Shown: positions 10,888-53,384, counted from the stretch's first letter. The stretch is DNA of 64,000 nucleotides from Gemmatimonadaceae bacterium (GCA_040901985.1 JBBDYC010000009.1:258303-322302), one strand, 5' to 3'. Numbers and translations are program-made. Notes: a model not told the origin generated them from the letters alone.

Positions 10888-10932
10888 ATCGGGACGGCGG
10901 GATTCGAACCCGCGACCCCCTGAACCCCATTC
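10888..10932 (-). repeat. att site: 3' half of tRNA-Pro(GGG), left island boundary
   Basis: Reverse complement gaatggggttcagggggtcgcgggttcgaatcccgccgtcccgat; identical copy at 53338-53382; D-arm/5' half absent. Confidence 0.9.
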
Positions 10933-11034: not shown

Positions 11035-11056
11035 CGGTGATTGCTAGGTGATTATT
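11035..11056. promoter_or_regulatory. Putative integrase arm-type sites (left)
   Basis: cggtgattgctaggtgattatt; 20/22 identical to 53244-53265. Confidence 0.65.
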
Positions 11057-11093
11057 AGCTACCCACCACTTTCTCAGGCTGAACGGAATCCTT

Positions 11094-12362
11094 ATGGCCA
11101 TCGCCCGAATCACCAAGCGAACCGTCGATGCCACGGAGGCATCGACTACGGACGTCTTTCTTTGGGACTCTGAGCTTCGAGGATTTGGCCTCAAAGTCAC
11201 CCCACGAGGTCTGAAGAAATACGTCATCCAGTATCGACTTCCTGGACTGGGACGCCGGGGCACCCCCAAGCGGGTAGTTCTCGGCACGCACGGCACGCTG
11301 ACGCCGGAAGAGGCCCGCCAGCTCGCCAAACGTTCGCTGAGCGCCGTGGCCCAGGGTTCTGATCCAGCTGGAGAACGGGCTGCCCGTCGGGGCACAAAGA
11401 CGGTCCAAGAACTATGGACGGACTATCTCGATTTCTCGAGACCGCGGCTCAAGCCTCGAACAATGAAGGAGTACCAGCGCCTTTTCGCCAGGCACGTCGC
11501 GCCAGCGCTTGGCTCAAAGCTGACACCGGAGATTCAGCCGCTGGACTTGCGCCGTCTCCATCGGGCAATGCACAAGACGCCGATTGCCGCGAACCGCGTG
11601 GTTGCAATGCTCGGGGCGTTCTTCACGTTTGCGTGGAAAGAGGGTGTCCTGCCACCGAAGGAGAACCCAGCGCATACGGTCGAGTTCTATCCGGAGTCGC
11701 ATCGCGAGCGCTTCCTCTCGCGGGACGAGTTCACACGGCTTGGCAAGGCGCTGACCCAAGCCGAGACCGTGGGACTGCCGCCCGCACCTCAGCTGCGGCG
11801 GAAGAGCGAGAATGACAAGCATCGCCCGAAGAGTGCCAACACGCCGATTCCAGCCAACCCGTTCGCAGTTGCGGCGATTCGTTTGCTCGCGCTGACGGGA
11901 TGCCGCGAGAATGAAATCCTGTCACTTCGGTGGGATGCCGTGGATTTCGACCGGGGGTACCTCCGTCTAGCCGACTCAAAAACAGGCAGGAGTGTGCGAC
12001 CGCTCGGCCGAAGCGCCGTATCGCTCCTTGAGCGTTTGCCGCGAATCTCTGGAAATCCGTACGTGCTCCCTGGCCAACAGCGCAACAAGCACCTCAAGGA
12101 GATCAAGAGACTGTGGTACGCCGTGCTCCATGCTTCGAAGTTGCCGGGACTTCGCCTGCACGATCTGCGGCACTCATTCGCCTCCGTTCCGGCGACCAGC
12201 GGCGAGTCGCTGTTGGTGGTGCGCTCACTTCTTGGACACAAGAATGTTGCAACGACTGAGCGCTACGCACATCTGGCTGACGACCCCGTCAAGCGAGCGG
12301 CTGATCGGGCTTCGAGCGACATCGCCGGTTGGCTGAGCCAAGCCCCGACCACTGATTCCTAG
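11094..12362 (+). CDS. int: Tyrosine integrase with N-terminal arm-binding domain
   Basis: LWDSELRGFGLKV arm domain; catalytic TGCR, SKTG, HDLRH, LLGH, TERY. Confidence 0.95.
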   Translation: MAIARITKRTVDATEASTTDVFLWDSELRGFGLKVTPRGLKKYVIQYRLPGLGRRGTPKRVVLGTHGTLTPEEARQLAKRSLSAVAQGSDPAGERAARRGTKTVQELWTDYLDFSRPRLKPRTMKEYQRLFARHVAPALGSKLTPEIQPLDLRRLHRAMHKTPIAANRVVAMLGAFFTFAWKEGVLPPKENPAHTVEFYPESHRERFLSRDEFTRLGKALTQAETVGLPPAPQLRRKSENDKHRPKSANTPIPANPFAVAAIRLLALTGCRENEILSLRWDAVDFDRGYLRLADSKTGRSVRPLGRSAVSLLERLPRISGNPYVLPGQQRNKHLKEIKRLWYAVLHASKLPGLRLHDLRHSFASVPATSGESLLVVRSLLGHKNVATTERYAHLADDPVKRAADRASSDIAGWLSQAPTTDS

Positions 12363-13826: not shown

Positions 13827-13842
13827 TGTAATCCTCACGTTC

Positions 13843-14103
13843 GAATATCTTCAATTCAGCTTGACGCCACACGTCTCGCACTATGCTCGGCCTTCCTTTG
13901 ACACCTCGGATTGCTGCGTCCTCGAGGTCCAGCTGTACCTAGGTAAAGTCATGCCAGCCCACGTGGGTAACGACGTCCACGACCACCTTTGAATATCTTC
14001 AATTCAGATTGACGCCACGCGTCTCGCATTATGCTCGGTCTTCCTTTGACACCTCGGCGTGCTGCGTCCTCGAGGTCCAGCTGTACCTCCGTAAAGTCAT
14101 GCC
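13843..14103. repeat. 113-bp near-tandem duplication of the HD gene 3' end (13843-13955, 13991-14103)
   Basis: Ungapped alignment, 8 mismatches, period 148 bp. Confidence 0.9.
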
Positions 14104-16492
14104 GACCTAAGTGGGAAACGATGTCCATCAACTCGTCGTTCCCGATCTTCGCAAGATCGATCTTTGCGAGCTTAAGCACCTCTCGGAACGAATCCATTTG
14201 CTCGCCGGAAAGCCCCGCCAAGTCCATGCACTCCTGCAAGTTGGCCGTTTCGCCGAACCGATACCGAATGTCGCGGCAGTTCTCATCACTATCGATGTGA
14301 ATCAGTTCGTCAAAATTGACCCCGGTCGGTCTATCGGCAGCGGCGTCAAAAGGGCTGGATAGACACACTTGCCAGAGCTTCTTGAGATCATCATCCGAGA
14401 TGACCGATTCTAGATCGAGTCTAGATACATTCGTTGAGACATTGGACATTTGGAACCAATGCCATGCGCTCTTGATCACTCGGATCAGAAAGCTCTCGGC
14501 CAGTCGAAGATGTTCCAAATGCGCCTGCTCATCTGAGCGGCACTTGTGTCCATCGAGCATGCTGGCGAGACCGCCAGTGTAGAATAGGCCGTCACTTCCG
14601 AACACGTAGATCTTCCACATCGCTGCGTACTGTGATTCCGCATTCACGAGCCCAGAACGCAGTCTTTCGAGGACAGAGGCAGGAACCGCTTCAGCACTCG
14701 AGGCGCTATCTGTCACCAGTTCATCGATACGCCCTACCGCCTCGTTAGCCCTAACGACGATCCCTGGATCCTTGTAGAGTTGCTTGTATGGAGTGGTCCA
14801 CAGGATCACTCGGCGCGGCAGCACGTCTCTCATCCACTTTGGGTCGGGAGGAGTCAAAGTACCATCGACGAACTGTTCGAGTTCCTGCATCGATTCAAAC
14901 GAATGATCAAGCAGGCGCTCAACTAGCCAGCACGCTGTGCAAAGAAACGGCGCAAAGTACTGGGAATCTAGAATCGCCCCGAGTCGCCTGAGCCATTCTT
15001 CCCGCTCCTCGATGGGGGAGTTTGCTGCATCAGCTCCCTTCAATAGCGCGAACGCTTGATCTCCCGAAAGTATCATAAGCGGTCGGTAGATGCGCCGCTC
15101 AATCAGCTTACGGGCCAGGCGGCTATGCGGTGTGCCGAGGTGACCGTCGCGAGGTAGGTCCGCCAACTGCTGCAAGAAGAGATCGTCGCCCTGCAGCGCA
15201 TGAAGAGAGGATCCGACTTGATAGAGCTGTGCAATGGTTGGCCTTTCGTCACCAGCTAAGGCAATCGCTCGAGCGAGCATCGCGATTGCACCCTGCACTA
15301 CGCGGTGAAATACCGCTTTCTCATGAATCTCATGGCGAAAATCAACCATGCGAAACACATCGTTGATTCGTTCGGACCGAATTACGCCACGCTTATAGTC
15401 GTTGAGATCAATCGCGCACTGTGCGAGACGTTCTGGCTTCCACCCCGATGGACCACCCAAGGCGAGAACTCGAGACTGCGGCACAGCGACGAGTGTGTAG
15501 ACGTCGAGCAGCTTGGGATCTATGGACTTCTGCATGCCCAACCGTCGCGCATCCCGATGCAGATAGTCGAGCAAATCCGCACTAAGCGTATCCCCGACGA
15601 TGTCGTGCCTGTACGGTTGATACCAAGCCCGGTGCAGTTTCTCGTGCATCGCAGCAGGGCCTAGCCCCCATTTAATCTTTTCCCTCTTCTCCGTATCAAA
15701 ACTGGTAACGAGGTTGATCGTCGGACCCCGGAGAGCATCCTTGACAGATTCAAACACCAATAGATGAAACAGGAGCGATGGAAGAATTCGCTTACCTCTA
15801 TCTCGTTCAGGCCATTCTTGGCACGCTTCGACGAAGAGACGCAGATGAGCTCCCTCATCTTTGGCGGCATCCTCCACAAGCAGTCGCCAAAACGCCGACG
15901 AGTGTTCGGCTAGGACTCTCGCAAGGATCGAGTCTGCACGATCGAAGAGGAGGACGTAGAGCGCTGGATTCTCTTCGAAATCGTCATGCTTCTCATAGGG
16001 TCCATAGTAGGACTTAACCTTCGTAGCCCGGTCGTTGTACCGATGAGTCTTCTTCTCTATGTCGTGCGAGAACGGAGCGTGCGGGATGTCATGCAGAAGC
16101 CCCGCGAGCGAGATAAGAAAGCGCTCAGCTCGCGTAATCGTGGGGAGCGGTTGATTCGGCCTTCCGACAGCTTTGCGTTGCGCGGAGATCCTTGGCGTGT
16201 TCTCGTTCAGGTGGTCGACGAGTTCCTTCGCCTTAGCACACGCACCAATGCTGTGGATGCCTCGAGAGTGGTTCGCCGTGTGATAGACGAGATCAACGAG
16301 CCCAAGCTGGGCTACCCGAAACAGTCGCTGAAACTCCGGTGTGTCAATACAGTCACTTTCGATTCGATTGAGACGCACGCCTCCCCACAAATCGTCGAGA
16401 AACTCCTCCCTATCATCAAAAAGCGAACTTGCCTCATGGGTCACTTCGAACTCCCGGAGCGGTGTCCGCCTGTTTTTTTTCACTACCTGCAA
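13949..16492 (-). CDS. Large HD-domain dNTP triphosphohydrolase-like protein (SAMHD1/YdhJ type)
   Basis: QRLFRVAQLG..HSRGIHSIG, LLHDIPHAPFSH, SADLLDYLHRDA; exact start uncertain. Confidence 0.85.
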   Translation of the reverse strand: MQVVKKNRRTPLREFEVTHEASSLFDDREEFLDDLWGGVRLNRIESDCIDTPEFQRLFRVAQLGLVDLVYHTANHSRGIHSIGACAKAKELVDHLNENTPRISAQRKAVGRPNQPLPTITRAERFLISLAGLLHDIPHAPFSHDIEKKTHRYNDRATKVKSYYGPYEKHDDFEENPALYVLLFDRADSILARVLAEHSSAFWRLLVEDAAKDEGAHLRLFVEACQEWPERDRGKRILPSLLFHLLVFESVKDALRGPTINLVTSFDTEKREKIKWGLGPAAMHEKLHRAWYQPYRHDIVGDTLSADLLDYLHRDARRLGMQKSIDPKLLDVYTLVAVPQSRVLALGGPSGWKPERLAQCAIDLNDYKRGVIRSERINDVFRMVDFRHEIHEKAVFHRVVQGAIAMLARAIALAGDERPTIAQLYQVGSSLHALQGDDLFLQQLADLPRDGHLGTPHSRLARKLIERRIYRPLMILSGDQAFALLKGADAANSPIEEREEWLRRLGAILDSQYFAPFLCTACWLVERLLDHSFESMQELEQFVDGTLTPPDPKWMRDVLPRRVILWTTPYKQLYKDPGIVVRANEAVGRIDELVTDSASSAEAVPASVLERLRSGLVNAESQYAAMWKIYVFGSDGLFYTGGLASMLDGHKCRSDEQAHLEHLRLAESFLIRVIKSAWHWFQMSNVSTNVSRLDLESVISDDDLKKLWQVCLSSPFDAAADRPTGVNFDELIHIDSDENCRDIRYRFGETANLQECMDLAGLSGEQMDSFREVLKLAKIDLAKIGNDELMDIVSHLGRHDFTEVQLDLEDAARRGVKGRPSIMRDAWRQSELKIFKGGRGRRYPRGLA

Positions 16493-17081: not shown

Positions 17082-17564
17082 TCAATTCGTAGGTACGCCT
17101 AGAACGACGAGGGCCAACGCTGCAGCATCAAATAGGTTCATTCGAGTGTCTTCCGCCTGCCAGAGCGCCCTAACACGTGGACGCCGCCGACGCAATTCGG
17201 GAAATCGGTTGGCAATCGCGGCCGCGATTGCCGCCTTCGTGACTTCGCCAAAGAAGGCACGTACGATCGTTCGGGACACCTGGCAAAGACCCATCTGCCG
17301 GTCCGCCACAAATTGAATCGCAAGAGCCTGCCTCCGCAGTGCCGCCGGTCGCTGACTGGGCGCATACAGATTCTCAAGTGCCAAGACTGAAGGCCTGCCG
17401 CGCTCAATGTGAGTCGAGAGTCGAGCTACGAACGCCGCATCACCCTGCTTCCCGAACGTGCTGAAGCCGTGGTCAAGTAGGCCCCATTTCGCGTCGATCA
17501 AGGCATAGCCAAATCCCTTGGCTGACAGATCGATCGCGAGAACTCGTAGCGTTCTTTTTTTCAT
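17082..17564 (-). CDS. RuvC/RNase H-fold nuclease-like protein
   Basis: VLAIDLSAKGFGYA, LALE, FDAAALA. Confidence 0.7.
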   Translation of the reverse strand: MKKRTLRVLAIDLSAKGFGYALIDAKWGLLDHGFSTFGKQGDAAFVARLSTHIERGRPSVLALENLYAPSQRPAALRRQALAIQFVADRQMGLCQVSRTIVRAFFGEVTKAAIAAAIANRFPELRRRRPRVRALWQAEDTRMNLFDAAALALVVLGVPTN

Positions 17565-17914
17565 TCAGTTGCTTCACCAATACATCTCCTGATAATCCGC
17601 TTAAGGGACTCGCACTTCTCTGCTCGTGCGGGATCCTTGGCCCGATGCACCATACTCTTGAGAAGTTTCTGTGCCCTCAGGCGCACCCGGCCTGCCACCA
17701 GCGCACATTCATCTTCGTGGATCTCTTCGACGCCCGCGCCGAAGATGACTGCGTATGCGAGGGCAACTTCGAGGGGCGGCGCGCACACACCGGTTTCGTG
17801 TCGCGAGACGCGCGTTCCGGTGAGGGCGCCAAGGAGGAAGGCCACGTCGTCTTGCGAAAGCGCGGTGCGACGGCGCAAGGCCTTGAGGAATGGAACGGGG
17901 GTTCTTTTCTTCAT
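17561..17914 (-). CDS. Xre-family HTH protein
   Basis: LKALRRRTALSQDDVAFLLG..VSRHETG; 4-bp overlap with the next gene. Confidence 0.8.
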   Translation of the reverse strand: MKKRTPVPFLKALRRRTALSQDDVAFLLGALTGTRVSRHETGVCAPPLEVALAYAVIFGAGVEEIHEDECALVAGRVRLRAQKLLKSMVHRAKDPARAEKCESLKRIIRRCIGEATE

Positions 17915-18003: not shown

Positions 18004-18032
18004 GTGGACGTGGGGACTTCGGGGACTTCGGG
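18004..18032 (-). repeat. Inverted copy of motif R1 (gtccccgaagtccccaygtcyac) with an extra partial unit
   Basis: Reverse complement matches 21395-21417 at 21/23. Confidence 0.8.
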
Positions 18033-18057
18033 TAAACCGACGACGGAGTAACGGCTG

Positions 18058-19356
18058 CTATGATTGTTCGTCTAGATTGGTGCCGTAGCGCTGGAAAAGC
18101 GCCTGGAGTCTCCCTTCTTCATTGATGTGGATGACGAACGACCCGTTGCTCTTGACCGCACGCAAACCCAATCGCGTCCGGAGCTGATGGCCAACCCAGC
18201 GAGGCGTCACGGGACGCCCAAAGTCAAAACCAAAGCGAACACCGAATCGACTCGCGATTTCTTTTATGCCAAGCGGTACGGACTCCCGCCGCATCTCTGC
18301 TATGATATCAAGAAGTTGCGCCTCCACGCCCACCCCTCTCTCAGCCTTCAAAGCCCAACTCGTCGTTTCGGCGAGTCGATGCAACCGCTCACGCGCTTCG
18401 TCATCAACCGCCACGGCTAGAAGCGGCGCAAATACTTGAGCCACTCGCGCCTCTATGTGTGGCGCTCGCGCCACTACTGCCGGGCCGAACTCGTGCCGGC
18501 GTCGCACACGGTACATCAGGAGCTGATTCTGGAGCGCGATAGCACCTTCGTGAAATGCCTCTGGTAAGCTGAGCGGAATGTCGTCGCGTGGAGGCAGTCC
18601 GACCATTTCTTCCGTGATGCAGCGGCTCTCGAGCGCCCGATCCTCGAACGATCGCCGCGTGGCAATCACCTTCGGCCCGTAGACGGCGAACGCTCTCGGA
18701 TTGAACTCCTTTCCTGGAGTCGCCTCACTCCGTAGCACCGGAAAGCCCTTGGCGTTTCCGTTGTTGAGAATCTTCACAATCTCAGCCCGCTCATCGGACA
18801 ATCGAAAGTCGCTTTCGTCCATGATCAGCGTGCCGCGAAACTCATCAATGATCCGAAAGAGCGGCGATACGGTCGATGCCCCACTCGCAAACATCGGCTT
18901 GTAGCAGAGGGCTCCGATGGTCTGAAGGCATCTCGTCTTGCCGCTACCGAAGTCTCCCTTGAGCCTCAGGTACGGCAGCTCATTGAACGCATCGTAGATC
19001 CAAGTGAGAAGGACGTAGTGCGCCGCAGCTTCTTCAAAAGCGGGCGACAGATCCGCATATCGATGAATGAACTGACTGACCGCCTCTATCAGAGACATTT
19101 CCGACTCATAGTCGGCCACACCCGATGGGAACTTCACTACTCCGTGGGCAATCAAGTTGTTATCGGCCGAGTACGCACGCACCTGACCGAGTTGTGGCAG
19201 ATCTAGGATACAGCCCTGCTCGACATGTCCGTGCCCTAGACGCACCAGTTCAACATCGCCCGCTGGGTATGCAGCTAGCGTTTCGACAATGCTGCCGTCG
19301 TCGAGAACTGCTGACACCAGCGTGCGTACTTTTGGCTTCTGAGTTTCGTGTGCCAT
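18058..19356 (-). CDS. P-loop NTPase resembling the helicase/wHTH part of mobile-element primase-helicases
   Basis: Walker A GDFGSGKT, Walker B LIMDE, ALESRCI arginine-finger-like motif, C-terminal wHTH-like region. Confidence 0.65.
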   Translation of the reverse strand: MAHETQKPKVRTLVSAVLDDGSIVETLAAYPAGDVELVRLGHGHVEQGCILDLPQLGQVRAYSADNNLIAHGVVKFPSGVADYESEMSLIEAVSQFIHRYADLSPAFEEAAAHYVLLTWIYDAFNELPYLRLKGDFGSGKTRCLQTIGALCYKPMFASGASTVSPLFRIIDEFRGTLIMDESDFRLSDERAEIVKILNNGNAKGFPVLRSEATPGKEFNPRAFAVYGPKVIATRRSFEDRALESRCITEEMVGLPPRDDIPLSLPEAFHEGAIALQNQLLMYRVRRRHEFGPAVVARAPHIEARVAQVFAPLLAVAVDDEARERLHRLAETTSWALKAERGVGVEAQLLDIIAEMRRESVPLGIKEIASRFGVRFGFDFGRPVTPRWVGHQLRTRLGLRAVKSNGSFVIHINEEGRLQALFQRYGTNLDEQS

Positions 19357-19538
19357 TGTGACAGCGTACCGCGATTCCGGCAGGGACGCAGGAGGGCGTG
19401 CGATGCGCGCCGCGTTGTCCCCAAGTGCAATTCGACATTCTGAATTAAGAATTGCAGAATTGCCCTGCGGCCGGCGATCGCTAACCGCGCAGGTTCCGCC
19501 CACTCGGGCGATTGCCGTCGGGCCAGTACGCTTTCGGA

Positions 19539-19721
19539 ATGAAGCTCACCGACGAACAGCTCGAAACCTTCATCGCTTGCTGGAGGGCGGACTTCGGTGA
19601 AGTCCTAACCAAAGACCAGGCGCGAGCCGAAGCGATGCGACTTCTCAGTTTCTTCATCACGCTAACTAACTATACGCAACGCCGGACCCAGCACCCAGAT
19701 ACCAGGGCTCTCAACAAATGA
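19539..19721 (+). CDS. Small 60-aa protein immediately upstream of the serine recombinase (candidate directionality factor)
   Basis: MKLTDEQLETFIACWRADFGEVLTKDQA; stop is 1 bp before the recombinase ATG; function is inference. Confidence 0.6.
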   Translation: MKLTDEQLETFIACWRADFGEVLTKDQARAEAMRLLSFFITLTNYTQRRTQHPDTRALNK

Positions 19722-19722
19722 C

Positions 19723-21339
19723 ATGAACTTCTTCATCTACTGCCGCAAGTCAACCGATTCCGAAGATCGGCAGGTCCTGTCGATTGAATCGCAGCGCAAC
19801 GAGGCACACAAAGTCGCGGGTACTGTGCCAGGCGCCGTTGTGGTGGAGATCCTCGAGGAATCCAAGAGCGCAAAACGGCCTGGGCGCTTGGTGTTCGATG
19901 CGATGCTTGACCGCATTGAGAGCAGAGAGGCGGACGGGATCATCTGCTGGCATCCTGATCGCCTCGCACGCAATGCGGTGGATGGCGGGCGCATCATACA
20001 TATGCTGGATACCGGAGTACTAAAAGACCTCCGATTCTCGACCGGCCAATTCGAGAACAACCCACAGGGCAAGCTCATGCTTTCCATGCTCTTCGGGTTC
20101 TCGAAATACTATGTGGACAGCTTGGCGGAGAACGTCAAGCGCGGGAACCGGGCCAAGGTAGGCAAAGGGTGGAGGCCTACCACGCCACCGTTGGGATATC
20201 TGACGGACCCAGTGACAAAGACGATCGTAGCCGATCCGTCGCGCTTCGACGCGATTCAAGCGCTCTTCCAGATGATGCTAACGGGCACGAGCTCGCCCCG
20301 GCAACTTCTTGACGCCGCCAATAGTAAGTGGGCCCTCAGGACCCGTCCGCGCCCACGCGGAGGAAATGCCCCGCTCCACCTCAGCGCCGTCTATGCGATG
20401 CTAAAGAACCCGTTCTACGCAGGAGTCTTCGCATGGGAAGGGCGAATGCATGCTGGGAAACACCAGCCCATGATCTCGCTCGCGGAGTTCGAAAGAATCC
20501 GGGAGCTGCTGGGTCGACCACACCGCCCGCGTCCGATTCGGCGAACGTTTCCGTATACCGGCATCATCCGGTGCGGAGCATGCGGTCTTGCCGTTACCGC
20601 TGAGGCCAAGATAAACAGACACGGGCATCATTACACGTATTACCACTGCACGCGACGCAAGCGTGGTTCATTCTGTCGTGAGCGGTGCGTTACGGAGCAA
20701 CTGATAGAACACGAGGTGCTGGCGTTGCTCGACAACATCCGCATTTCGAAGGCAAGTGCCGGATGGATTGAAGACCATTTGCCGCAGATGGATGACACCG
20801 ATGGGGCAGCCCGCGACGCACGTCAAGCTTCATTGTCCTCCGCGATTGACACCCTCGACCGCGAGATCAGTACCCTGACCGGCTTGCGCATCCGAGAGAT
20901 TGTAGACGACCAGGAGTTTTTCAGGGAACGCGAGGCGCTTACTGGCCGCCGGCTAGCGCTGGTACAAGAGGTCACGGCGCTCGCGGTGCCCACGGACTGG
21001 ATCGAACCCCTCAGAGTCCTCATTTCGTTCAGCGATAGAGCCGCAGAACTGTTCCGCGATGGCGACGCGACCATTCGACGCCTAATAGTCGAAACCGTAT
21101 GTTCGAACCTCGTCCTGCAGAACAGAAAACTGAGCGTTGAAGCCACGAAACCGTTCCTCAGAACGGGCTCGGCGGCCTCCAGTTCAGAACTGCGGGCAGT
21201 GATGAAGGACGTTCGAACCCTTTTGCACGATCACGACGACGTCTTTACAGACATCATATCAAATATCACACGGATATTCTCTCTAACCAAAAAGGCACCG
21301 CCAAGGGACGAAACCCAGGGCAGTGCCTTTTCCTCGTGA
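19723..21339 (+). CDS. Large serine recombinase (LSR)
   Basis: YCRKSTDSEDRQ (catalytic Ser), DRLARN, recombinase domain, Zn ribbon CGACG..YYHC..C, coiled coil. Confidence 0.95.
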   Translation: MNFFIYCRKSTDSEDRQVLSIESQRNEAHKVAGTVPGAVVVEILEESKSAKRPGRLVFDAMLDRIESREADGIICWHPDRLARNAVDGGRIIHMLDTGVLKDLRFSTGQFENNPQGKLMLSMLFGFSKYYVDSLAENVKRGNRAKVGKGWRPTTPPLGYLTDPVTKTIVADPSRFDAIQALFQMMLTGTSSPRQLLDAANSKWALRTRPRPRGGNAPLHLSAVYAMLKNPFYAGVFAWEGRMHAGKHQPMISLAEFERIRELLGRPHRPRPIRRTFPYTGIIRCGACGLAVTAEAKINRHGHHYTYYHCTRRKRGSFCRERCVTEQLIEHEVLALLDNIRISKASAGWIEDHLPQMDDTDGAARDARQASLSSAIDTLDREISTLTGLRIREIVDDQEFFREREALTGRRLALVQEVTALAVPTDWIEPLRVLISFSDRAAELFRDGDATIRRLIVETVCSNLVLQNRKLSVEATKPFLRTGSAASSSELRAVMKDVRTLLHDHDDVFTDIISNITRIFSLTKKAPPRDETQGSAFSS

Positions 21340-21343
21340 TTCA
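21289..21343 (-). ncRNA. Putative ~55-nt antisense small RNA, copy 1
   Basis: Downstream of a consensus promoter; GGCACUGCC-CU-GGG-UUUCGU-CCC-UU-GGCGGUGCC-UUUUU; ends are estimates. Confidence 0.5.
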
Positions 21344-21349
21344 TTCTCT

Positions 21350-21377
21350 ATTATAGAAATCCTTGAATCTCTGTCAA
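21350..21377 (-). promoter_or_regulatory. Consensus sigma70 promoter facing the LSR 3' end
   Basis: TTGACA-N16-TATAAT on the minus strand. Confidence 0.75.
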
Positions 21378-21430
21378 TCGACTCTCTTACCAATGTCCCC
21401 GAAGTCCCCATGTCTACCCCGAATTACTGT

Positions 21431-21643
21431 CTAGGTCGTGTGGCATGGGTTGCAGCAGTAGTAACAACCATTAGTGTCTGAGAAGTGCGTCCTAGCCACC
21501 TTCATCGCGTCTCCACATGAGCTGAACGATCCAAGGTATATGGCATTACTCGAGTCAGGAAAGTACGAGCATCCAGATACGTGAACTTCGTGATCGTAAG
21601 AACCTGGCTGAGCATTTTTGTTTACGTAGTAGCTTTTATTCAT
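21431..21643 (-). CDS. Small Cys/His-rich putative Zn-binding protein
   Basis: YYVNKNAQ..DHEVH..C..GCYYCCNPCHT. Confidence 0.75.
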   Translation of the reverse strand: MNKSYYVNKNAQPGSYDHEVHVSGCSYFPDSSNAIYLGSFSSCGDAMKVARTHFSDTNGCYYCCNPCHTT

Positions 21644-21665
21644 TTTTTGTTTCGTTAGATGTTAA

Positions 21666-22016
21666 TCACTCACATCCCCACCCATCACGGTCTCGATCAA
21701 GATCGAAGACATCTGGACCAGTAACCCTTACGGTACCTGTGTAGTTCGGTCCGTTTCCAGATCCACCAGCACAATCATAATCGCCAGCATTCACCTTTAA
21801 GCAACCAGAGTAGCTAGAGTGGCAACTTGATCGTTCTGGTGCTGAAGCAGCCTTCTGAATCGGCTGAATATTCTGGGCATTCTGCACAGGTATGGGTACA
21901 TACAAGCTTGTATCAGTACTCTCGGGTTCTGAAGAGCCCATCGCCATTAGCCCCACAAGAGCACCGCTCGCCAGGATGATTTTGGTGGTAGGAGTCATGT
22001 TCTTTACCGCTATCAT
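21666..22016 (-). CDS. Secreted/membrane protein with excalibur-like Ca-binding C-terminus
   Basis: N-terminal hydrophobic segment; DYDCAGGSGNGP..LDRDRDGWGCE. Confidence 0.7.
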   Translation of the reverse strand: MIAVKNMTPTTKIILASGALVGLMAMGSSEPESTDTSLYVPIPVQNAQNIQPIQKAASAPERSSCHSSYSGCLKVNAGDYDCAGGSGNGPNYTGTVRVTGPDVFDLDRDRDGWGCE

Positions 22017-22077
22017 ATACCTATCACTCAGCTAAGCAAACACGATCTGTCCTTGGCTCAATACAAAGGACTAGATA

Positions 22078-22099
22078 TCCCCGAAGTCCCCATGTCTAC
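22078..22099 (+). repeat. Motif R1, stand-alone copy
   Basis: tccccgaagtccccatgtctac, identical to 21396-21417 and 23798-23819. Confidence 0.85.
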
Positions 22100-22122
22100 T
22101 GGCCTGCCTCCCCAGGGCCTAT

Positions 22123-22938
22123 TTATGCGCTCGATTCGAAGACATTAAACTTCTTTGAATACGAATAGATCGAACGAAAACCCGTATCCTTTGTGTGCTG
22201 GTCCAAATGATTTAAGAAGTGCTTATCGAAGAGTTTGGTGAAGGCGTTGTCTACGCCAGTTTGCTCCTGTTCAAGCTTCTTGCGGATCAAATACGTGACA
22301 CAGTCCGCAAACTGCATCGCATCAAAACACTCTGCAGATAAGAATGAGAACCGTACCGTAAGCTGGTTCGTGCCTGGCTTCTTCTCCGCAATCCTAGCAA
22401 TCTGCCTCGTGATTTGATCTTTATACACAGCTTCCAAGTTGTTCAACCTATCCAAAGTAGTGCGCATCCCAATCCTACCAGACCTTACCGTGTGTGCTCG
22501 CCTCCCCTCAAACATCACAGTTAGTGTCGACACATCCTTAAACATCGTGTTAAGTGTGTACCCACTACCCTTCATCTTGTTGGCTAGCGCAAACACACTC
22601 TGCTTCGCGAAGTAGTGTTCGTAAGTCTCGCTAGTTGGAATAAATGAGTCATTCCTCCTGTATAGAAAGGAGTGAAAGTAGACTTTCTCCGTACTGTGAA
22701 ATGCAGCGAGCCAGCGATCCATCAATGCAAGTTGCCGAGAGTCTGTCTCACTTATTTCGCTACCATGTAGCGTCACCCAACATTCCGGGGCTACTTTCCT
22801 AGCTTGCTTGAGCGCATTCAGAAACTCAAACTCTCCCTTATCGGAATCGGTTATCAGATAACCAACTAAAGTATGGTTTCGATCGTTGATGCCAATTTCA
22901 GTTGATTCGTCAACCCAGATCGTGATTGCCTTTTCCAT
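22123..22938 (-). CDS. DUF3800-like (RNase H-fold) protein
   Basis: N-terminal IWVDES, C-terminal MQFADC. Confidence 0.6.
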   Translation of the reverse strand: MEKAITIWVDESTEIGINDRNHTLVGYLITDSDKGEFEFLNALKQARKVAPECWVTLHGSEISETDSRQLALMDRWLAAFHSTEKVYFHSFLYRRNDSFIPTSETYEHYFAKQSVFALANKMKGSGYTLNTMFKDVSTLTVMFEGRRAHTVRSGRIGMRTTLDRLNNLEAVYKDQITRQIARIAEKKPGTNQLTVRFSFLSAECFDAMQFADCVTYLIRKKLEQEQTGVDNAFTKLFDKHFLNHLDQHTKDTGFRSIYSYSKKFNVFESSA

Positions 22939-22947
22939 CTGGCATCA

Positions 22948-23184
22948 CTAACCCTTCGGCGGATGAGGGTCACTCCCGTATGTATTTCTCTCGCGAATAC
23001 GACCATCCCTCGAATGGATAAACAGTTCTGATTCGTTGTTCTTTGCAACCTTGGTTGCGAATCGGATGGCCTGATCCTGACGATCAAACACTTTCGTATC
23101 CTTGTCTGCTCCCGCTTTCTTTACAGCCCAGCCATCCGAACGAGGCAATACATGCTGATTGTTACTATTGCGCACCTTTGTCAT
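22948..23184 (-). CDS. DUF2188-family small protein
   Basis: QHVLPRSDGWAVKKAG..ELFIHSRDGRIRERNTYGSDPHPPKG; start moved to ATG 23184. Confidence 0.85.
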   Translation of the reverse strand: MTKVRNSNNQHVLPRSDGWAVKKAGADKDTKVFDRQDQAIRFATKVAKNNESELFIHSRDGRIRERNTYGSDPHPPKG

Positions 23185-23190
23185 GTCGAC

Positions 23191-23199
23191 ATTATACCA
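23191..23199 (-). promoter_or_regulatory. Extended -10 promoter, probably leaderless transcript
   Basis: TGGTATAAT, 6 nt before ATG 23184. Confidence 0.6.
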
Positions 23200-23256
23200 C
23201 ACTCACTATCTATTCAGGTTGCACACTTATTCAGTACCGCATCCTGTACCTGCCCC

Positions 23257-23281
23257 TCACGCAAATAACACCCTCATCACA
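23257..23281 (+). repeat. Motif R2, copy 1
   Basis: tcacgcaaataacaccctcatcaca, identical at 25831-25855. Confidence 0.85.
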
Positions 23282-23592
23282 CTAGGGTCTCGATCGTTCA
23301 GAATGGAATCGGGCGCCCAATTAGTAGCTAATCAGCAGTAACATGGATTTGAACATGTTTGGTCGTCGAGAGCGTCCTATACCAGAGGACGCCAAAAAGA
23401 CTCTCAATGAAATCCTTGAGTTGGTAGAGAGCGATGTCGAGTTCCTTCGCGAAAGCGTTCGAGCTCTAGGCAGAGAGCTTGTATATCACCTCAAGGGAGA
23501 GGCTTCAGACATATAGGTGGTACGAACAGCGGTATTTCCATATCCAACGTCGAAGATTCGAATTCTCTACCTCACCAATAGCACACTTTGCT

Positions 23593-23820
23593 TGCGGGCA
23601 GTGGTGAAGGACGTTCGAACCCTTTTGCGTGATCACGACGACGTCTTTACAGACATCATATCAAAGATCAAACAGATATTCTCTCTAATCAGAAAGGCAC
23701 CGCCAAGGGACGAAACCCAAGGCAGTGCCGTCTTATCGTGATTCGTTCTCTATGATAGAGATCTACGAATCGCTGTCAATCAGCTCTCTTACCAATGTCC
23801 CCGAAGTCCCCATGTCTACC
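23593..23820. repeat. 228-bp unit, copy 2
   Basis: Offset 2402 bp from copy 1; hairpin 23696-23729, promoter TTGACA-N16-TATCAT 23752-23779 (minus strand), R1 23797-23819. Confidence 0.9.
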
Positions 23821-23832
23821 AAGTAGGTGTTG

Positions 23833-25752
23833 TTAAAGAGGCCGATTGAACTGGGCAGATGGCACGTGCGGTGCCATATCAGCCAAGAACTGACTGGCTT
23901 GCAGATACGCAATACCACGGAACCGGCGTGCCGGAGATATTCGTTGAACGTGAGTACTGGCTGATTCCATCGTCTGCGAGTACGAAAGGGCGAGATATCC
24001 CTGGCGGCCTTCTTCAGGCCTCGCCTTCACGCGTGTAATCCCAACATAGAACAACCTGCGATCCTCTTCGAGTGTCGCAGCCTTCTCAGCATCAGACGCT
24101 TCCTTCGACGGCGACGACGGTAGAAGCCCTTCCACACATCCCGCGATAAAGACGAAAGGGGCGCTCAGACCCTTGCTCTTATGGAGGCTCATAATCCTGA
24201 CTTCATTCACACTAGGCGGAACTTCGGGTCGGTCCATACTCTCCTGCAGCGCCTCGTAAAGTTCTTCCGGAGTCGAGCACTCTTCCTTGTGCTCTGCGAC
24301 TGCTTCAGCAAGTAACTTCGTTTCAGCGCTCGATGGAAGCCACCGATCCAGAAACAGAGTCAGATCTGTGGTCGCGCTGAGAGCCGCGAGCTCCGTTGCA
24401 ATCATCTCAAACTTTCTGACAATCTGGGTGGTGCGTGGAATCGCGAGACCGCCGCCAGCGAGTCGCTCTAAGATCTCCCGCGGCGCCTCGCCAGTCCCTG
24501 ATGCATATGCCATGATGCGCCCGTATTGTTCTGCGTGCCACTTAGCATGGCCGCGACCCAATAACCATCTTAAGGCTACTCGGTCTTGCTTGTTGACCAA
24601 GAGTTTTAGCAGAGAGTAGCGCTCCTGCGCCTCAACAGTATCAAGAGCAGATTCTGCATAGTACGATTTAACGGGAACATTCCTCGTCTGGATTGCATCG
24701 AACAGTGTACGTGCGAGACCTTCGCGCTGGGCAAGCACCATAATCTCACCTGGCGACACGCCACTCGACACAACTCGTTCAATCTTTTCGGCAACTGCTG
24801 CCGCCTCGCTCTCAACCGTACGGTACTGCCGGACCACGACTTCTCCTGGGCCATTCTCTTCGATCTCTTGCATCGCGCGAGCCGGGACTCTCCCCGGATT
24901 CTTCGCAATGAGAGCGTTAGCCATTCGGACGACAGTCGTCGGACACCGGCGACAATCGTCTATGCCAAAATCCACTCCCGAATGGCTGGTGCTCCATTCG
25001 CGAATACCTTGAGGATGAGCGTGCTTGAAACTGTAGATGGATTGGTCGTCGTCACCGATCACGCAAAGTGAACTTGCTTCCCCCAACAAATACAGCGTGT
25101 CCTGCTCCGCTCGATTCAAATCCTGGTACTCATCAACGAGGACGTGAGAAAACTCTCGAAGCTCGTCCGCGCTGGGATTCGACTTCAGAAACTTGTACAA
25201 ATGCGGGATAATCTCCTCGAGGAGCATAGCTCGATGAAAACGCAGCCACGAAATCAGATCATCTTGAAACCTCTGTTCTTCTGCTGTCCGAGTGAATCCT
25301 GGGTCATCCGCCTGAAGTCGGGCCCAGGCTGCTCCATAAGCGCTCATCAGCTTGCGACGAGCGTGGATGGTGCCATGTTGCGACCCGAGGTCGTACATCA
25401 GCGGCGTAAGTTCAAACTTGCTCAATGCTCTTGGATGTCGCCCCAGAGCAGACAAGACATGATTTCTCATTAAAATCGACATCGCAAGACTGTGGACGGT
25501 TCGTCCATGAAGCCCGACAACCCCGAGCTTTGCCAAATCACGGTGAAGGTCATCGGCCGCTACGCGAGTAAAAGTCACGGCCAGGACTTTTGCCGGCGCA
25601 ACTTTCTCAACCTCGAGAAGTCGAGCGACTCGACGGTTCATTGCGAACGATTTCCCGGTGCCCGGGCCAGCCAGCACACGAATTCGATTGCTCGTCGATG
25701 CCGCGACTTCGTATGCGGGAGTTCCCGCGACTAGTTCATCGTTCCATGCCAT
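23833..25752 (-). CDS. UvrD/Rep superfamily 1 helicase
   Basis: AGPGTGKS, VTFT, VDEYQD, GDDDQSIY, SLHKSKGL, EEDRRLFYVGITR. Confidence 0.9.
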   Translation of the reverse strand: MAWNDELVAGTPAYEVAASTSNRIRVLAGPGTGKSFAMNRRVARLLEVEKVAPAKVLAVTFTRVAADDLHRDLAKLGVVGLHGRTVHSLAMSILMRNHVLSALGRHPRALSKFELTPLMYDLGSQHGTIHARRKLMSAYGAAWARLQADDPGFTRTAEEQRFQDDLISWLRFHRAMLLEEIIPHLYKFLKSNPSADELREFSHVLVDEYQDLNRAEQDTLYLLGEASSLCVIGDDDQSIYSFKHAHPQGIREWSTSHSGVDFGIDDCRRCPTTVVRMANALIAKNPGRVPARAMQEIEENGPGEVVVRQYRTVESEAAAVAEKIERVVSSGVSPGEIMVLAQREGLARTLFDAIQTRNVPVKSYYAESALDTVEAQERYSLLKLLVNKQDRVALRWLLGRGHAKWHAEQYGRIMAYASGTGEAPREILERLAGGGLAIPRTTQIVRKFEMIATELAALSATTDLTLFLDRWLPSSAETKLLAEAVAEHKEECSTPEELYEALQESMDRPEVPPSVNEVRIMSLHKSKGLSAPFVFIAGCVEGLLPSSPSKEASDAEKAATLEEDRRLFYVGITRVKARPEEGRQGYLALSYSQTMESASTHVQRISPARRFRGIAYLQASQFLADMAPHVPSAQFNRPL

Positions 25753-25830
25753 GGCCTTACGCTATCGCAATTCCTCGCTTAATGGAACACGCAACGCCCA
25801 CGGCTTCCCCACCCGCTCCCTTAGCGCGCA

Positions 25831-25855
25831 TCACGCAAATAACACCCTCATCACA
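25831..25855 (+). repeat. Motif R2, copy 2 (followed by an R1 variant atccccaacgtccc at 25887-25900)
   Basis: 25/25 identity with 23257-23281. Confidence 0.85.
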
Positions 25856-25913
25856 AGATCGTTGCGCGGTCTGCATAGTTGCCCGCATCCCCAACGTCCC
25901 TGGGCGCGATGCC

Positions 25914-28556
25914 CTACAGACCGTACTTTTTCCTCTTGAGCTCGTAGGACTTGTATCCGCCCTCCAGATGATCGACAACATCGTCCTTGATTGCCTGCTC
26001 ATCGATTGAGCCGGAACGGGCGACCCATCCCTTTCTTCCATCCGCCTCAAAGACAATGAACTGATCTGAATCAGATGAGACCGAGATACTGGAGTTATGA
26101 GTGGTGAACACAAACTGCCGCACATGCTTGCTGATACGCAATCGTGAGCATATGTTTGCCCAGATAGATGGGATATCCAATGCATCTTCCGGCTGATCGA
26201 TGACGACCGGCATGGCTCCGTCACCAAGCGCGATCATGATCAGCGCGTCGGCCTTTTGACCCATGGATAGCTCGGACAATGGATAGTATTGGCCGTCCCG
26301 CTTCTGATACGCAATTTCGATCCGGTCCTCTGGATATCCATCGTACTGCATAGACATTGTCTTCAGCCGCACTCCAGTCTCATTGAGCGCAGTTACAATA
26401 GCTTCCGCTTTCTGTTCAGATATATCGGCGCGCTTCGCCAATGCCTTAGCGTTTCGATCCAGGACCATCCGCACGAATTCTACTGGCGTCACCTGACTGA
26501 CGATTCTGTCGATCTCCTTCTTCTCAGCGTACGATCCAACCGCGAGGTCCTTCAACAGACCCGTGTATGCGCTCCTGTTGTCGCCGGCCTGCACCGCAAT
26601 TCTGAGCTTACCTCCCGCCTTGGTTGTTATCAGTTCGGCTTGCTTGGAACGTTCTGTGAAATAGCGCGTCTTGGTTTCGCCGAGAGTGGCGAGTAGAGTC
26701 TCACGTTCAGCGCGGAACTTGCCGTCCTGTTTTGCGGCCTTCTCGGCCTGGGTGATTCTTGCAACTAGCCCCTTCTTCTCGTCTAGTAATGACCGACGCT
26801 TAGTCTCCAAACCTTCTTCCCTCTTCTTCAGTGTGACCGTTGCAACGTACTCTTTCTCCAACTGTTGATACTTGTTCCTCTTGTCCCACCCACGCAGAGC
26901 AATACGCGCTTGCTCATGTGCCTTCTCTACATCCTTCCGAGTCGCCTTAAGTCCACCTAGAGCGACAGAGTAGCTGGCTCGCAAACTGGTATCGATGGCG
27001 CCAATCGTATCAGCTTGAACCTTGCCAGTGGGTGCGTTTTCCTTGAAAGCTTCAATAGCGTCGTCGATCAATTCCAGCAGAGGATCAAACTCTTCTATCT
27101 TCTCCTCAATCGCCGTGCGCTCAGCTGACAATGCCAAGTACGGTTTTGACGCCTTGCTCTTGTCTGCGATGCCAATCTGCTTGGATAGCTTCTCGAGTGC
27201 CACCTCAGTGTTCTGCAACTGCTTCTTGAGAACCTCGCAGTTAGCCGAATCCTCAATCGCCTGGTGCAGCTTCTGGTCGAGACGCCCAAGATTCTGACGG
27301 ATCTCCGTCACTTGGTTCTGGTATGTGTCGAGATCCTGGAAGTTGTCGAGCAGGCCAAGTTGAGCGTGCTCATCACGCGTTATCTCTAAGATCTCGTTCT
27401 GGCTATAGATTAGAAGGGGCACCAGTGACGAGAGGTCGCCGCTGAACGCCTTCCCCGAGTCGATGTTGACGCAGGACACGGCCGAGGAATAAGGATCACG
27501 TGGGTTCTCGTACTTGCGGCAGATCTTATACCGCGTACCCGAACCGTCGCGATAAATCACAGTCACTTCCCCGTGAATCCGCAATTGCTTCTGCAGCTTC
27601 TGCTTGTGATCAGACATCAGCACTTCGGGGGGCTTGCGGTCAAACACAAATCGCAGGAGTTCAATCGTTAGAGACTTTCCCGTTCCCGTACCGCCGATGA
27701 TGCTGTTCATCCCGTGATGAAAAGGGATGGTCTGCCGATCTAGGAACCCGCCACGTATCTCGAGTTGTTCGATTCGCGGGTGTGCCGATGCGATTTTCTC
27801 TAGTTCGTAGTCTTGGATAATTCGGCTATCTCGATCCTCGAAGCACTCGCGCAACGACTCTAGAGTGAGAGCCCCCATGCGAAAGTAGGTGAAATGGCTG
27901 CCAATCGTCTCTAGGCAATGGCCTGTCTTGCCGACAATAGGGTTGTCCGATGCCTTGTATACAGCGAGCTTGCGAAGATATACCGGGTCCTCGCCGTCCA
28001 GAACATCAATGAGGCGCTTTTTCCCAGTGACCCCGTCGAAGTCCCCAGAGGTCGCCTCGACTGCACTGAGATTCTTGTTCTTGACGAGTGCCGCGCGTGG
28101 ATTGCCCCTGATATCTGAAAGGGCACCATGTGTGGAATTCGCATGTGCTAGGACAGCAAGACCACCAGCCTGATTGATAATGTCAATCACATCTGCCGGA
28201 CTCTTCTGTGTCAGCGCATCGCGACCTGCACCGGAGACATCGAGCTTTCCAAGCACCCTCTGAAGGTCATCTTTGTCGACTCGTGGATCAAAGAGGGCAA
28301 TGACATGAATGGACCCACTCTGCGTTGCTCCACACGACACTTCAACGCCAGGGAAGATGGTAAAGCCCTTCGCCTTTGCCGCAGTCTTCATCTTGTCTAT
28401 GAAGTCAACGGTATTGTGATCCGTCACAGCGATTGCGCTAAGGCCGATCTCCTGACAGCGTGCGACGATATCGCCTGCGCTCACCGTCTTGTCGAGAAAG
28501 TCGTGGGATGCCGGTGTGTGGACGTGGAGATCGAGCTTGTGGAGTTGTAGTGACAT
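25914..28556 (-). CDS. PHP phosphoesterase fused to SMC-like ABC ATPase (Ppl/TrlF-like)
   Basis: DLHVHTPAS, AVTDHN, GVE, LAH, ASD; GGTGTGKS, LSMGQ, IDQPEDALD, TTHN. Confidence 0.85.
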   Translation of the reverse strand: MSLQLHKLDLHVHTPASHDFLDKTVSAGDIVARCQEIGLSAIAVTDHNTVDFIDKMKTAAKAKGFTIFPGVEVSCGATQSGSIHVIALFDPRVDKDDLQRVLGKLDVSGAGRDALTQKSPADVIDIINQAGGLAVLAHANSTHGALSDIRGNPRAALVKNKNLSAVEATSGDFDGVTGKKRLIDVLDGEDPVYLRKLAVYKASDNPIVGKTGHCLETIGSHFTYFRMGALTLESLRECFEDRDSRIIQDYELEKIASAHPRIEQLEIRGGFLDRQTIPFHHGMNSIIGGTGTGKSLTIELLRFVFDRKPPEVLMSDHKQKLQKQLRIHGEVTVIYRDGSGTRYKICRKYENPRDPYSSAVSCVNIDSGKAFSGDLSSLVPLLIYSQNEILEITRDEHAQLGLLDNFQDLDTYQNQVTEIRQNLGRLDQKLHQAIEDSANCEVLKKQLQNTEVALEKLSKQIGIADKSKASKPYLALSAERTAIEEKIEEFDPLLELIDDAIEAFKENAPTGKVQADTIGAIDTSLRASYSVALGGLKATRKDVEKAHEQARIALRGWDKRNKYQQLEKEYVATVTLKKREEGLETKRRSLLDEKKGLVARITQAEKAAKQDGKFRAERETLLATLGETKTRYFTERSKQAELITTKAGGKLRIAVQAGDNRSAYTGLLKDLAVGSYAEKKEIDRIVSQVTPVEFVRMVLDRNAKALAKRADISEQKAEAIVTALNETGVRLKTMSMQYDGYPEDRIEIAYQKRDGQYYPLSELSMGQKADALIMIALGDGAMPVVIDQPEDALDIPSIWANICSRLRISKHVRQFVFTTHNSSISVSSDSDQFIVFEADGRKGWVARSGSIDEQAIKDDVVDHLEGGYKSYELKRKKYGL

Positions 28557-48910: not shown

Positions 48911-48917
48911 CGGCGGA

Positions 48918-53015: not shown

Positions 53016-53116
53016 CCCGACAGCGCCGCGCCGCCCATTGCACCGTGTCGCAAACGGGTCCGGTTCGTTCACGATGGAGACTTTTCGGAGACTTTCTTCA
53101 GAAGGTCCGTTGAACA

Positions 53117-53156
53117 CAGAAACCCCGCAACGCGCCAAGTCGTTGCGGGGTTTCTG
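53117..53156. terminator. 16-bp stem hairpin downstream of the tRNA-Pro(CGG) fragment
   Basis: cagaaaccccgcaacg-cgccaagt-cgttgcggggtttctg. Confidence 0.7.
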
Positions 53157-53337: not shown

Positions 53338-53384
53338 ATCGGGACGGCGGGATTCGAACCCGCGACCCCCTGAACCCCATTCAG
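53338..53384 (-). repeat. att site: 3' half of tRNA-Pro(GGG), right island boundary
   Basis: 45/45 identity with 10888-10932; no 5' half. Confidence 0.9.

Follow-up and report, generated by a model that had tools for sequence, protein, structure and literature searches.

A large serine recombinase gene whose 3' end recurs among defence gene blocks in a tRNA-integrated island of a Gemmatimonadaceae bacterium

How do gene blocks that carry no recombinase come to lie one behind another beside a single recombinase gene? The question is raised by a 64,000-nucleotide stretch of DNA from a Gemmatimonadaceae bacterium (GCA_040901985.1 JBBDYC010000009.1:258303-322302; hereafter the window, meaning the whole stretch), in which the gene of a large serine recombinase (LSR) is followed by cargo genes and short repeats. 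A first inspection of this DNA, the sequence-only reading, had described a platform analogous to an integron, with two boundary motifs, R1 and R2, and a 228-bp unit that starts inside the LSR 3' end and recurs farther on. The R1 repeats, the R2 pair and the recurrence of the unit are all present in the window (Table 1), and the cargo blocks beside the LSR are delimited by repeats. As to their origin we favour, tentatively and at a little less than an even chance, an account in which the 3' end of the LSR gene itself holds a site where cassettes without a recombinase become stacked, in the manner of staphylococcal cassette chromosome (SCC) elements or of the ssrA islands of Dehalococcoides.

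R1 consists of three hexamers of the GGGGAC type (GTCCCC GAA GTCCCC AYG TCYAC). At up to 3 mismatches the 23-mer matches at four places in the window, compared with 0 in 100 shuffles, and the same four copies are the only ones in the 2.64-Mb genome. Three of them, at 21395, 22077 and 23797, are direct copies that lie close to the stops of cargo genes, as the sequence-only reading had seen, with gaps of 13, 23 and 13 nt to the stop of the next minus-strand gene. The fourth, at 18004-18026, is inverted; the earlier reading used it as a start coordinate and did not describe it. A weaker variant at 25887 had also been proposed. A relaxed hexamer-pair pattern is found at only five places in the 64 kb, namely the four R1 copies and this one, against a block-shuffle mean of 0.67, so that the variant is a plausible decayed R1 site which, taken alone, is not beyond chance. 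The homology of the flanks of R1a and R1c, and likewise the homology between loci, ends exactly at the outer end GTCYAC, and the solo copy R1b has edges that are sharp to about 3 nt. As a tandem direct repeat R1 is no dyad, and none of the four sites has an attC-like fold, since as single-stranded DNA they fold no better than shuffles (z = +1.9, -0.9, +0.4 and -1.0). The earlier statement that there are neither attC folds nor an intI gene here is thus borne out: the window encodes a single tyrosine recombinase, an integrase of P4 type that lies 9 kb from the array.

More telling observations concern the end of the LSR gene. The two copies of the 228-bp unit differ at 22 positions (90% identity), and the second contains a detached LSR tail that starts 49 codons before the stop. 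The same kind of remnant is found in two related loci described below, each time derived from the LSR of that locus: in G029 169 nt at 92% identity, starting 43 codons before the stop, and in G892 a stretch of 159 nt (82%) that begins 61 codons ahead of the stop and is accompanied by a relic of the p69 region (p69 being the small open reading frame (ORF) that precedes the LSR gene) but by no R1. The unit is therefore no one-off, as the sequence-only reading had allowed it might be. Across three LSR lineages the tail copies are 8–18% diverged and start 43–61 codons before the LSR stop. Each locus repeats the tail of its own LSR; the site co-varies with the recombinase. A break in base composition falls at the same point. 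The guanine-plus-cytosine (GC) content drops from 0.57–0.61 to 0.43–0.50 at 21200, where tail copy 1 starts, stays low to about 23900 and rises after R1c. The intact LSR gene therefore carries a foreign tail, joined on where the detached tail begins. When the core proteins of seven loci were compared with four cargo regions, LSR-tail relics were the only remnants found, apart from the p69-region relic in G892; none of p481, the helix-turn-helix (HTH) regulator or p160, the other core proteins, was detected in the four regions.

The repeats are also ordered. To the left there is a single inverted hexamer set; every further set is found beyond the LSR, and these share one direction: at 22077, 23797 and 25887 in the window, at 10152, 13706 and 13957 in G029, and at 22131, in degenerate form, in G174. 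Away from the LSR they decay. In the window an intact tail is followed by a tail at 90% identity and then by a degenerate hexamer pair only; in G029 an intact tail is followed by one at 92% with a damaged R1.

The relatives that make these comparisons possible are eight loci: G093 from the same family (Gemmatimonadaceae), L014 from a Thermoanaerobaculia metagenome-assembled genome (MAG), G029, G174, G820, G721, G910 and G892. They are uncommon. Close homologues of p481 were found in 2 of 400 other genomes of a phylum sample (plus 4 weak matches), in 3 of 400 in an order sample and in 4 of 400 in the phylum of L014's genome. Seven loci that bear an LSR, the window included, share a common core of p160, the HTH regulator, p481 and a divergent LSR. 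p160 is kept at 29–55% identity and the regulator HTH117 at 32–62%. Two further p481 loci are G820, which has a Toprim primase in place of the LSR, and G721, which is cut by a contig end. The hosts belong to Gemmatimonadota and Acidobacteriota, and R1 is conserved across these two phyla. By tblastn, p69 has matches before the LSR in G093, L014, G174 and G910, and none in G029 or G892, whose LSRs are of other lineages.

What follows the LSR differs in every locus and is mostly of defence type: a Lit-like peptidase U49, a Schlafen/AlbA_2 protein and DUF4238 in G029, an AAA_15 ATPase and then GmrSD in G174, genes of the type of the cyclic-oligonucleotide-based anti-phage signalling system (CBASS) in G910, and Mrr in G892. 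Different, mostly defence, cargo behind the same kind of boundary, for which the sequence-only reading had proposed to look, is thus found in G029, and in G174 with a degenerate boundary site. L014 has no defence cargo; there, two-component, TauE and AcrB genes at 68% GC follow R1. G093 has a UvrD homologue 60% identical to that of the window directly after R1, in the order LSR-R1-UvrD with nothing between, and the 2.4 kb that separates these parts in the window is therefore an insertion at that point. Besides the region behind the LSR, a second place varies in all loci, the interval between the integrase and p160, which holds HD-CE and PRTase genes in G029, GmrSD_N and HEPN in G174, and a trypsin-like protein and DUF4268 in G093. 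A homologue of the window's DUF2188 protein (45% identical) lies in this other variable region at L131 (G910) 857-1063, with no R1 nearby, and one cargo type is therefore found at both hotspots.

Searches beyond these loci added no members. Viral contigs gave 9 pattern matches for p481, with no relative among them, and 10 single-match loci for an R1-type pattern, which had no module genes by tblastn and were taken as chance. In metagenome contigs 80 LSR loci were kept at 31–41% identity; R1 occurred in none, only isolated weak matches to p481 or p69 were seen, and these loci were rejected as members of the family. Also rejected was L015, from a Pirellulaceae MAG, which has an R1 21-mer only and no module genes, about 1 chance match being expected in the 596 Gb. 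A search for an empty site corresponding to the right flank of L014, in 20 relatives of G625, returned generic response-regulator matches only and no synteny.

R1 had been taken for the boundary at which the LSR works. It is probably not the LSR's site, because its sequence is constant among loci whose LSRs, of three lineages, are only 22–25% identical, while their p481 proteins are 48–69% identical. Its arrangement points elsewhere. In five relatives (G029, G174, G892, G910 and G721) the p481 stop is immediately followed by an inverted and a direct hexamer set, with about 85–100 bp from one to the other. The window, G093 and L014 have the inverted set alone beside p481; their direct set stands behind the LSR, 3.4 kb away, and p481-p69-LSR lies between the two. 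In the excerpts of PMC9371898 that describe the origins of Staphylococcus aureus pathogenicity islands (SaPI), a central region just behind rep has at least two penta- or hexanucleotide iterons on either side, those of one side pointing against those of the other, and it is the C-terminal winged-helix domain of Rep that recognises them. By this analogy R1 most likely represents origin iterons that would be bound by p481.

p481 itself, a Walker-A ATPase, resembles the C-terminal (helicase) part of primase-helicases and is a candidate Rep. This assignment draws on a structure match in the ESM Atlas, in which 428 residues of a record that begins at residue 50 align with Toprim primase-helicases, in the C-terminal part of the latter, at a template-modelling (TM) score of 0.91. 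At least 4790 of 8000 scored candidates are homologues of p481, and some relatives carry DUF3631; p481 has no Pfam match. In G820 (L130, 14605-15555) the p481 homologue lies beside a Toprim/DnaG-zinc-ribbon primase gene, with no LSR, which supports a role of p481 in replication. The C-terminus of our own model is a helix-helix-beta hairpin, and the residues invariant across 15 homologues include several in this part (among them W387, G389, Q391, L392, R395, L396, K402, G405 and F407). Against PDB sequences nothing fell below E 0.29, and there was no similarity to solved Rep structures; a fold search of the model against PDB gave no hit at E <= 0.001, the weak rows being winged-helix proteins and MCM/ORC. 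Inverted sets of exact hexamers were found behind none of four distant p481 homologues (L019-L022), in a test that also missed two of three positive controls.

A better candidate for the LSR site is the point within the LSR gene where the tail repeat has its left edge. The mechanism we propose starts from a conserved island core made up of the RuvC-like gene, the HTH regulator, the Rep-like helicase p481, p69 and the LSR. The docking site of the LSR would lie inside its own gene, some 45–60 codons short of the stop, where the 228-bp unit has its left edge. Incoming circles without a recombinase would bear a look-alike of the LSR tail, here together with the adjacent R1, and the LSR, acting as the catalyst, would insert them at the tail site by a crossover at the left edge of the repeat. 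Each insertion would supply the LSR with a new tail and push the previous tail, with its R1, downstream. Blocks would thereby accumulate, the newest beside the LSR, separated by tail and R1 copies that decay with age. The array may still be active.

Several observations weigh against this mechanism. A recombination product between the units, for which the sequence-only reading had suggested a search, was not seen. The contigs of the one run found to contain the sequence, probably that of the source sample, bear out the order of the assembly; in 21000-24000 they include no alternative joint and no product of excision or circularisation. The depths of the unitigs (23.2, 29.3 and 34.8, with flanks at 26.2–26.6) are too noisy for interpretation. 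The left edges of the tail repeats have no dyad symmetry above background. Both tails in the window are low in GC (45% and 47%), where a simple site-to-site cassette predicts only one, and the coding mismatches in the tail remnant, distributed 2, 6 and 5 over the codon positions, give no sign of purifying selection. Solo R1b and its counterpart in G029 (13947-13981) are sharp-edged on both sides and have no tail remnant, and the 37 nt around R1c, the last of the unit, are identical to those around R1a beside 191 nt that hold all 22 mismatches (11.5% divergence). Some process must therefore act on or preserve R1 itself, and docking at the tail does not explain it. G892 has no cargo between the LSR and the relic and looks like a decayed tandem module, and tail repeats occur in only 3 of the 7 LSR loci examined. 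Finally, the fold assignment of p481 depends on the Atlas match, our own model being mediocre (predicted local distance difference test score, pLDDT, 65) and without a significant PDB match.

In a rival history the LSR plays no part. Islands integrated in tandem at a tRNA gene by the tyrosine integrase, or recombining with one another, may have lost their backbones by deletion, with LSR tails and R1 left over, the R1 copies persisting through a predicted binding of the Rep-like helicase. We regard such accretion and erosion as unlikely, although scars of this kind keep a fair share of the odds. The island does sit at a repeat of a tRNA fragment and has the marks of a mosaic, with a second tRNA fragment at 53165-53211 and low-GC DNA past its right repeat; the p69-region and LSR-tail relics of G892 lie directly behind an intact LSR, as in a decayed tandem module; a divergence of 8–18% implies tails from different lineages and not fresh duplications; and in G029 two GGGGAC hexamers in the L orientation lie about 145 nt before a solo R site, like a decayed origin. 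Random deletions, however, should sometimes spare pieces of p481, HTH, p160 or the integrase, and the four cargo regions contain none. Three remnants of three lineages also all start 43–61 codons before the LSR stop, tandem islands with deletions cannot yield a composition break in the intact LSR gene at the very point where the detached tail starts, and the edges of solo R1b are sharp to about 3 nt. The converse idea, that R1 is itself the recombination site of the LSR or of another island protein, with one R1 per cassette and the tail copies as by-products, is distinctly improbable. It would account for an R1 at every cargo junction in the window (n = 4, one degenerate), for the sharp edges of the solo copies on both sides, for the exact end of flank homology at GTCYAC, for the foreign DNA of L014 that ends at R1, and for an R1 that stays identical while the adjoining tail decays. 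But an LSR site is not expected to be the same for LSRs only 22–25% identical, or to be a tandem direct repeat without a dyad; five relatives have the origin-like inverted pair beside the helicase gene and no cassette; and the tail repeat of G892, which has no R1, means that the duplication process does not need R1.

The remaining explanations fare worse. In the window, G093 and L014 the module p481-p69-LSR stands between inverted R1 copies (28 nt, 86% complementarity), and the two ends, if abutted, would make up a palindrome of about 50 bp, which is as long as the attP of an LSR (PMC12286644). The segment 18004-21417 could then be a transposon-like or invertible LSR element with the 23–28-bp inverted repeats as attP half-sites and the further R1 copies as alternative right ends for larger units that move or flip. 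This is very improbable, since the HTH and RuvC-like genes outside the segment are kept alongside the module in all seven loci, which excludes independent movement; the sets lie side by side and not around the LSR in G029, G174, G892, G910 and G721; there is no second copy in the genome and no other context was found; and an invertible switch was rejected because the flipped order occurs in 0 of 7 loci. A one-off duplication or an assembly artefact is scarcely credible. At k=31 the 37-mer that the two copies share has double depth (53.6) and leaves the unitig graph ambiguous, and this counts for an artefact as well as against the docking account, but the copies, with 22 differences in 228 positions, form unitigs of their own at single-copy depth, a like structure recurs in G029 and G892, and R1 is conserved across two phyla. 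R1 was also tried as the arm-type site of the tyrosine integrase and rejected, since other repeats, of a GGTGATT type, lie near both island ends. We return, with the reserve stated at the outset, to cassettes docked into the end of the LSR gene.

Table 1. Coordinates of the repeats, genes and island ends in the 64,000-nt window
Feature	Position	Strand	Details
Left direct repeat of island	10888..10932	-	45-bp 3' fragment of a tRNA gene; second copy 53338-53382
P4-type tyrosine integrase of island	11094..12362	+	Pfam Phage_integrase, Arm-DNA-bind_3, SAM_3
p160, RuvC-like, core gene	17082..17564	-	phrog_159 RuvC-like Holliday junction resolvase, E 9e-7
HTH117, Xre-type regulator, core gene	17561..17914	-	Pfam HTH_31
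R1 inverted, left hexamer set (L)	18004..18031	-	GTGGAC GT GGGGAC TTC GGGGAC TTC
p481, Walker-A ATPase, candidate Rep	18058..19356	-	ORF runs to 19503; likely start 19356
p69, small ORF directly before LSR	19512..19721	+	no family match
LSR, 538 aa	19723..21339	+	Pfam Resolvase, Recombinase, Zn_ribbon_recom; phrog_95 integrase
Tail unit copy 1	21191..21418	+	last 49 LSR codons, 55-nt spacer, R1a; GC 0.58 to 0.43 at left edge
R1a	21395..21417	+	23-mer match
Cargo block 1	21431..22016	-	70-aa protein 21431-21643 and 116-aa protein 21666-22016; 47% GC
R1b, solo copy	22077..22099	+	22 of 23 nt as R1a; both flanks unrelated to those of R1a
Cargo block 2	22123..23202	-	271-aa protein 22123-22938 and DUF2188 protein 22948-23202
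R2 copy 1	23257..23281	+	50 nt upstream of DUF2188 start
p57, small ORF	23343..23516	+	ends directly before an ORF that runs into the LSR-tail remnant
Tail unit copy 2	23593..23820	+	detached last 49 LSR codons (82% aa identity), spacer, R1c
R1c	23797..23819	+	23-mer match
UvrD/GajB-like helicase	23833..25752	-	GajB-like; 60%-identical homologue directly after R1 in G093
R2 copy 2	25831..25855	+	79 nt upstream of UvrD start (start codon 25752)
Degenerate R1-like hexamer pair	25887..25904	+	ATCCCC AAC GTCCCT; relaxed pattern; about 10 nt before Ppl stop
PHP + SMC/ABC-type ATPase	25914..28556	-	matches PADLOC Ppl
Right direct repeat of island	53338..53382	-	second copy of the tRNA 3' fragment; repeat search

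The L set is found at the matching place in G093 and L014 as well. R2 had been read as closing two of the blocks on their 5' side. Its 25 nt are identical in the two copies, within 30 nt at 93%, and these two are the only ones in the genome; at up to 5 mismatches there is none in the five other sequences searched (G093, L014, G029, G174 and L015), so that the motif is confined to this genome. No similarity was found between R2 and the p481/p69 intergenic region. It may be a shared promoter or operator, or the scar of a junction.

Among the gene calls of the sequence-only reading, those of the LSR, the DUF2188 protein, UvrD and the PHP-ATPase hold, while its DUF3800-like and excalibur-like proteins have no match in four libraries. 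The latter two are the 271-aa protein of block 2 and the 116-aa protein of block 1, which has a signal-like N-terminus; a C-terminal motif of the DxDxDGxxCE type, which we presume to be that of excalibur proteins, is the one feature of the 116-aa protein that fits this label. The 70-aa protein of block 1 is rich in Cys and His and matches phrog_4298, and the DUF2188 protein matches both Pfam DUF2188 (1.5e-23) and PADLOC PDC-S16 (1e-32). p57 occupies the position that p69 has in the intact module and has no similarity to it.

The array is not the free-standing platform that had been supposed: it lies inside a 42-kb tRNA-integrated island, 10933-53337, of which the locus is the core and which has a tyrosine integrase of its own. 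It has the structure expected of such an island, a tRNA-derived direct repeat at either end and the integrase beside the left one. The same structure bounds the island of G093, where the repeat is of another tRNA fragment and the integrase at the matching place is 61% identical. The 45-bp fragment is 100% identical in 4 of 5 genomes of the same genus and 95% identical over 55 nt in the fifth; ARAGORN found no intact tRNA in the window, and there is none on the contig. The window has 46–63% GC from about 11 kb to 62 kb, whereas host DNA has about 70%. Library searches of the window proteins found defence genes to be abundant throughout the island, and in our reading the island resembles a phage satellite.

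Several features of the island stand apart from the array. The variable region between the integrase and the core, 12825-16492, encodes proteins of 337 aa (CapP-like) and 847 aa (with an HD domain), and at 47921-49826 a DarT gene (344 aa) overlaps that of a macro-domain protein (302 aa), a pair of the DarTG type. GGTGATT-type direct repeats near both island ends (11036-11060 and 53245-53270) are probably arm-type sites of the P4-type integrase. Near the right end a terminator-like hairpin (53114-53157) precedes the second, different tRNA 3' fragment at 53165-53211, which is 96% identical to the att repeat of G093 and looks like a junction carried over from another host or island. Low-GC DNA extends past the right repeat (53383-62000) with genes for AbiU2 (59685-60374), an SMC-like ATPase (56943-59399) and DUF2971, and is probably a further island in tandem. 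The right flank, 60500-64000, shares only short repeats and no synteny with five genomes of the same genus; the contig ends where the window ends, and the island region may run on to that end. In circular mode ARAGORN formed a tRNA-Gly across the end (window 63975-64000) and the start of the 322-kb contig, which means either an assembly break inside a tRNA gene or a circular replicon. No Rfam family reaches threshold in the window.

The sequence-only reading did not recognise the arrangement as a described system. Stacking of recombinase-less cassettes by an LSR is, however, already known (PMC11470126, PMC3146451). The passages of PMC11470126 on SCC and SCCmec describe tandem LSR-linked cassettes, many without a recombinase, separated by direct repeats of the attachment sequence that are the 3' end of a gene; their cargo includes anti-phage genes, and Ccr mobilises neighbouring SCC-like elements in trans. 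The window resembles them as a tandem array linked to an LSR, with blocks bounded by direct copies of the LSR tail unit and R1. It differs in that the target of SCC is the housekeeping gene rlmH, whereas the gene end repeated here is the recombinase's own; in that the array is nested in an island with a tyrosine integrase and a Rep-like helicase; in its hosts, which are Gemmatimonadota and Acidobacteriota; and in that mobility is here something we infer. Nor is the LSR a Ccr. Its NCBIfam scores are 71.3 bits for CcrB (cut-off 900), 40.4 for CcrA (700) and 32.4 for CcrC (900), which is generic LSR similarity only, and its XisF match is likewise far below cut-off. The Dehalococcoides ssrA islands (DsiB, of the CcrB family) are, in the parts of PMC3146451 that treat them, tandem, bounded by a gene 3' end or its short direct repeats, run by an LSR, variable in cargo and built by accretion; but they usually each bring an integration module and target ssrA, whereas in the window a single LSR precedes blocks that have no recombinase, and what is repeated is the tail of that LSR. 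Our literature search, which in the excerpts it returned surfaced the SCC and Dehalococcoides systems, gave no description of docking into the end of the recombinase's own gene.

The likenesses to other systems concern single parts. Five relatives share with SaPI and other phage-inducible chromosomal islands (PICI) the opposed hexamer sets directly downstream of a helicase gene, but 3.4 kb separate the sets in the window, G093 and L014. Further differences are a central region without clear AT-richness, a helicase that has no similarity in sequence to Reps of solved structure, and extra copies of one set among the cargo. As in integrons, cassettes are stacked beside the recombinase gene, the newest apparently nearest; unlike integrons, the array has neither IntI nor attC hairpins, its recombinase is a serine and not a tyrosine recombinase, and its blocks hold several genes whose direction is mixed among loci. 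P4-like and other phage satellites are reported to carry defence hotspots (Rousset et al. 2022), and the island described here is like them: it is integrated at a tRNA, it has an integrase of P4 type and a conserved core, and its defence cargo varies at two fixed places, between the integrase and p160 and behind the LSR. To our knowledge, repeat-delimited stacking beside an internal LSR is not part of the description of P4-like satellites.

Should the repeats be no more than scars left by the decay of the island, the locus is a mosaic defence island of an ordinary kind. A bolder generalisation, which we consider doubtful, is that it represents an undescribed and possibly widespread class of self-docking platform. 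The last 45–60 codons of the LSR would be the landing pad for recombinase-less defence cassettes that mimic the tail, each capture would swap the LSR tail and the cassettes would stack newest first, and R1 would tie them to the Rep helicase, so that cassettes or the whole array would be replicated on induction of the island. The link between a Rep-like helicase and iterons does raise the question of whether captured cassettes are replicated with the island. If the LSR docks cassettes into its own gene end, integrons and SCC would be joined by a third, independent mechanism that builds ordered stacks of accessory genes, and it would have been found in soil and sediment phyla (Gemmatimonadota and Acidobacteriota) in which the biology of mobile elements is almost unknown. 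It would provide LSR/site pairs with natural recombinase-less partners, of interest for genome engineering, and it would account for the shuffling of defence genes among satellite-like islands.

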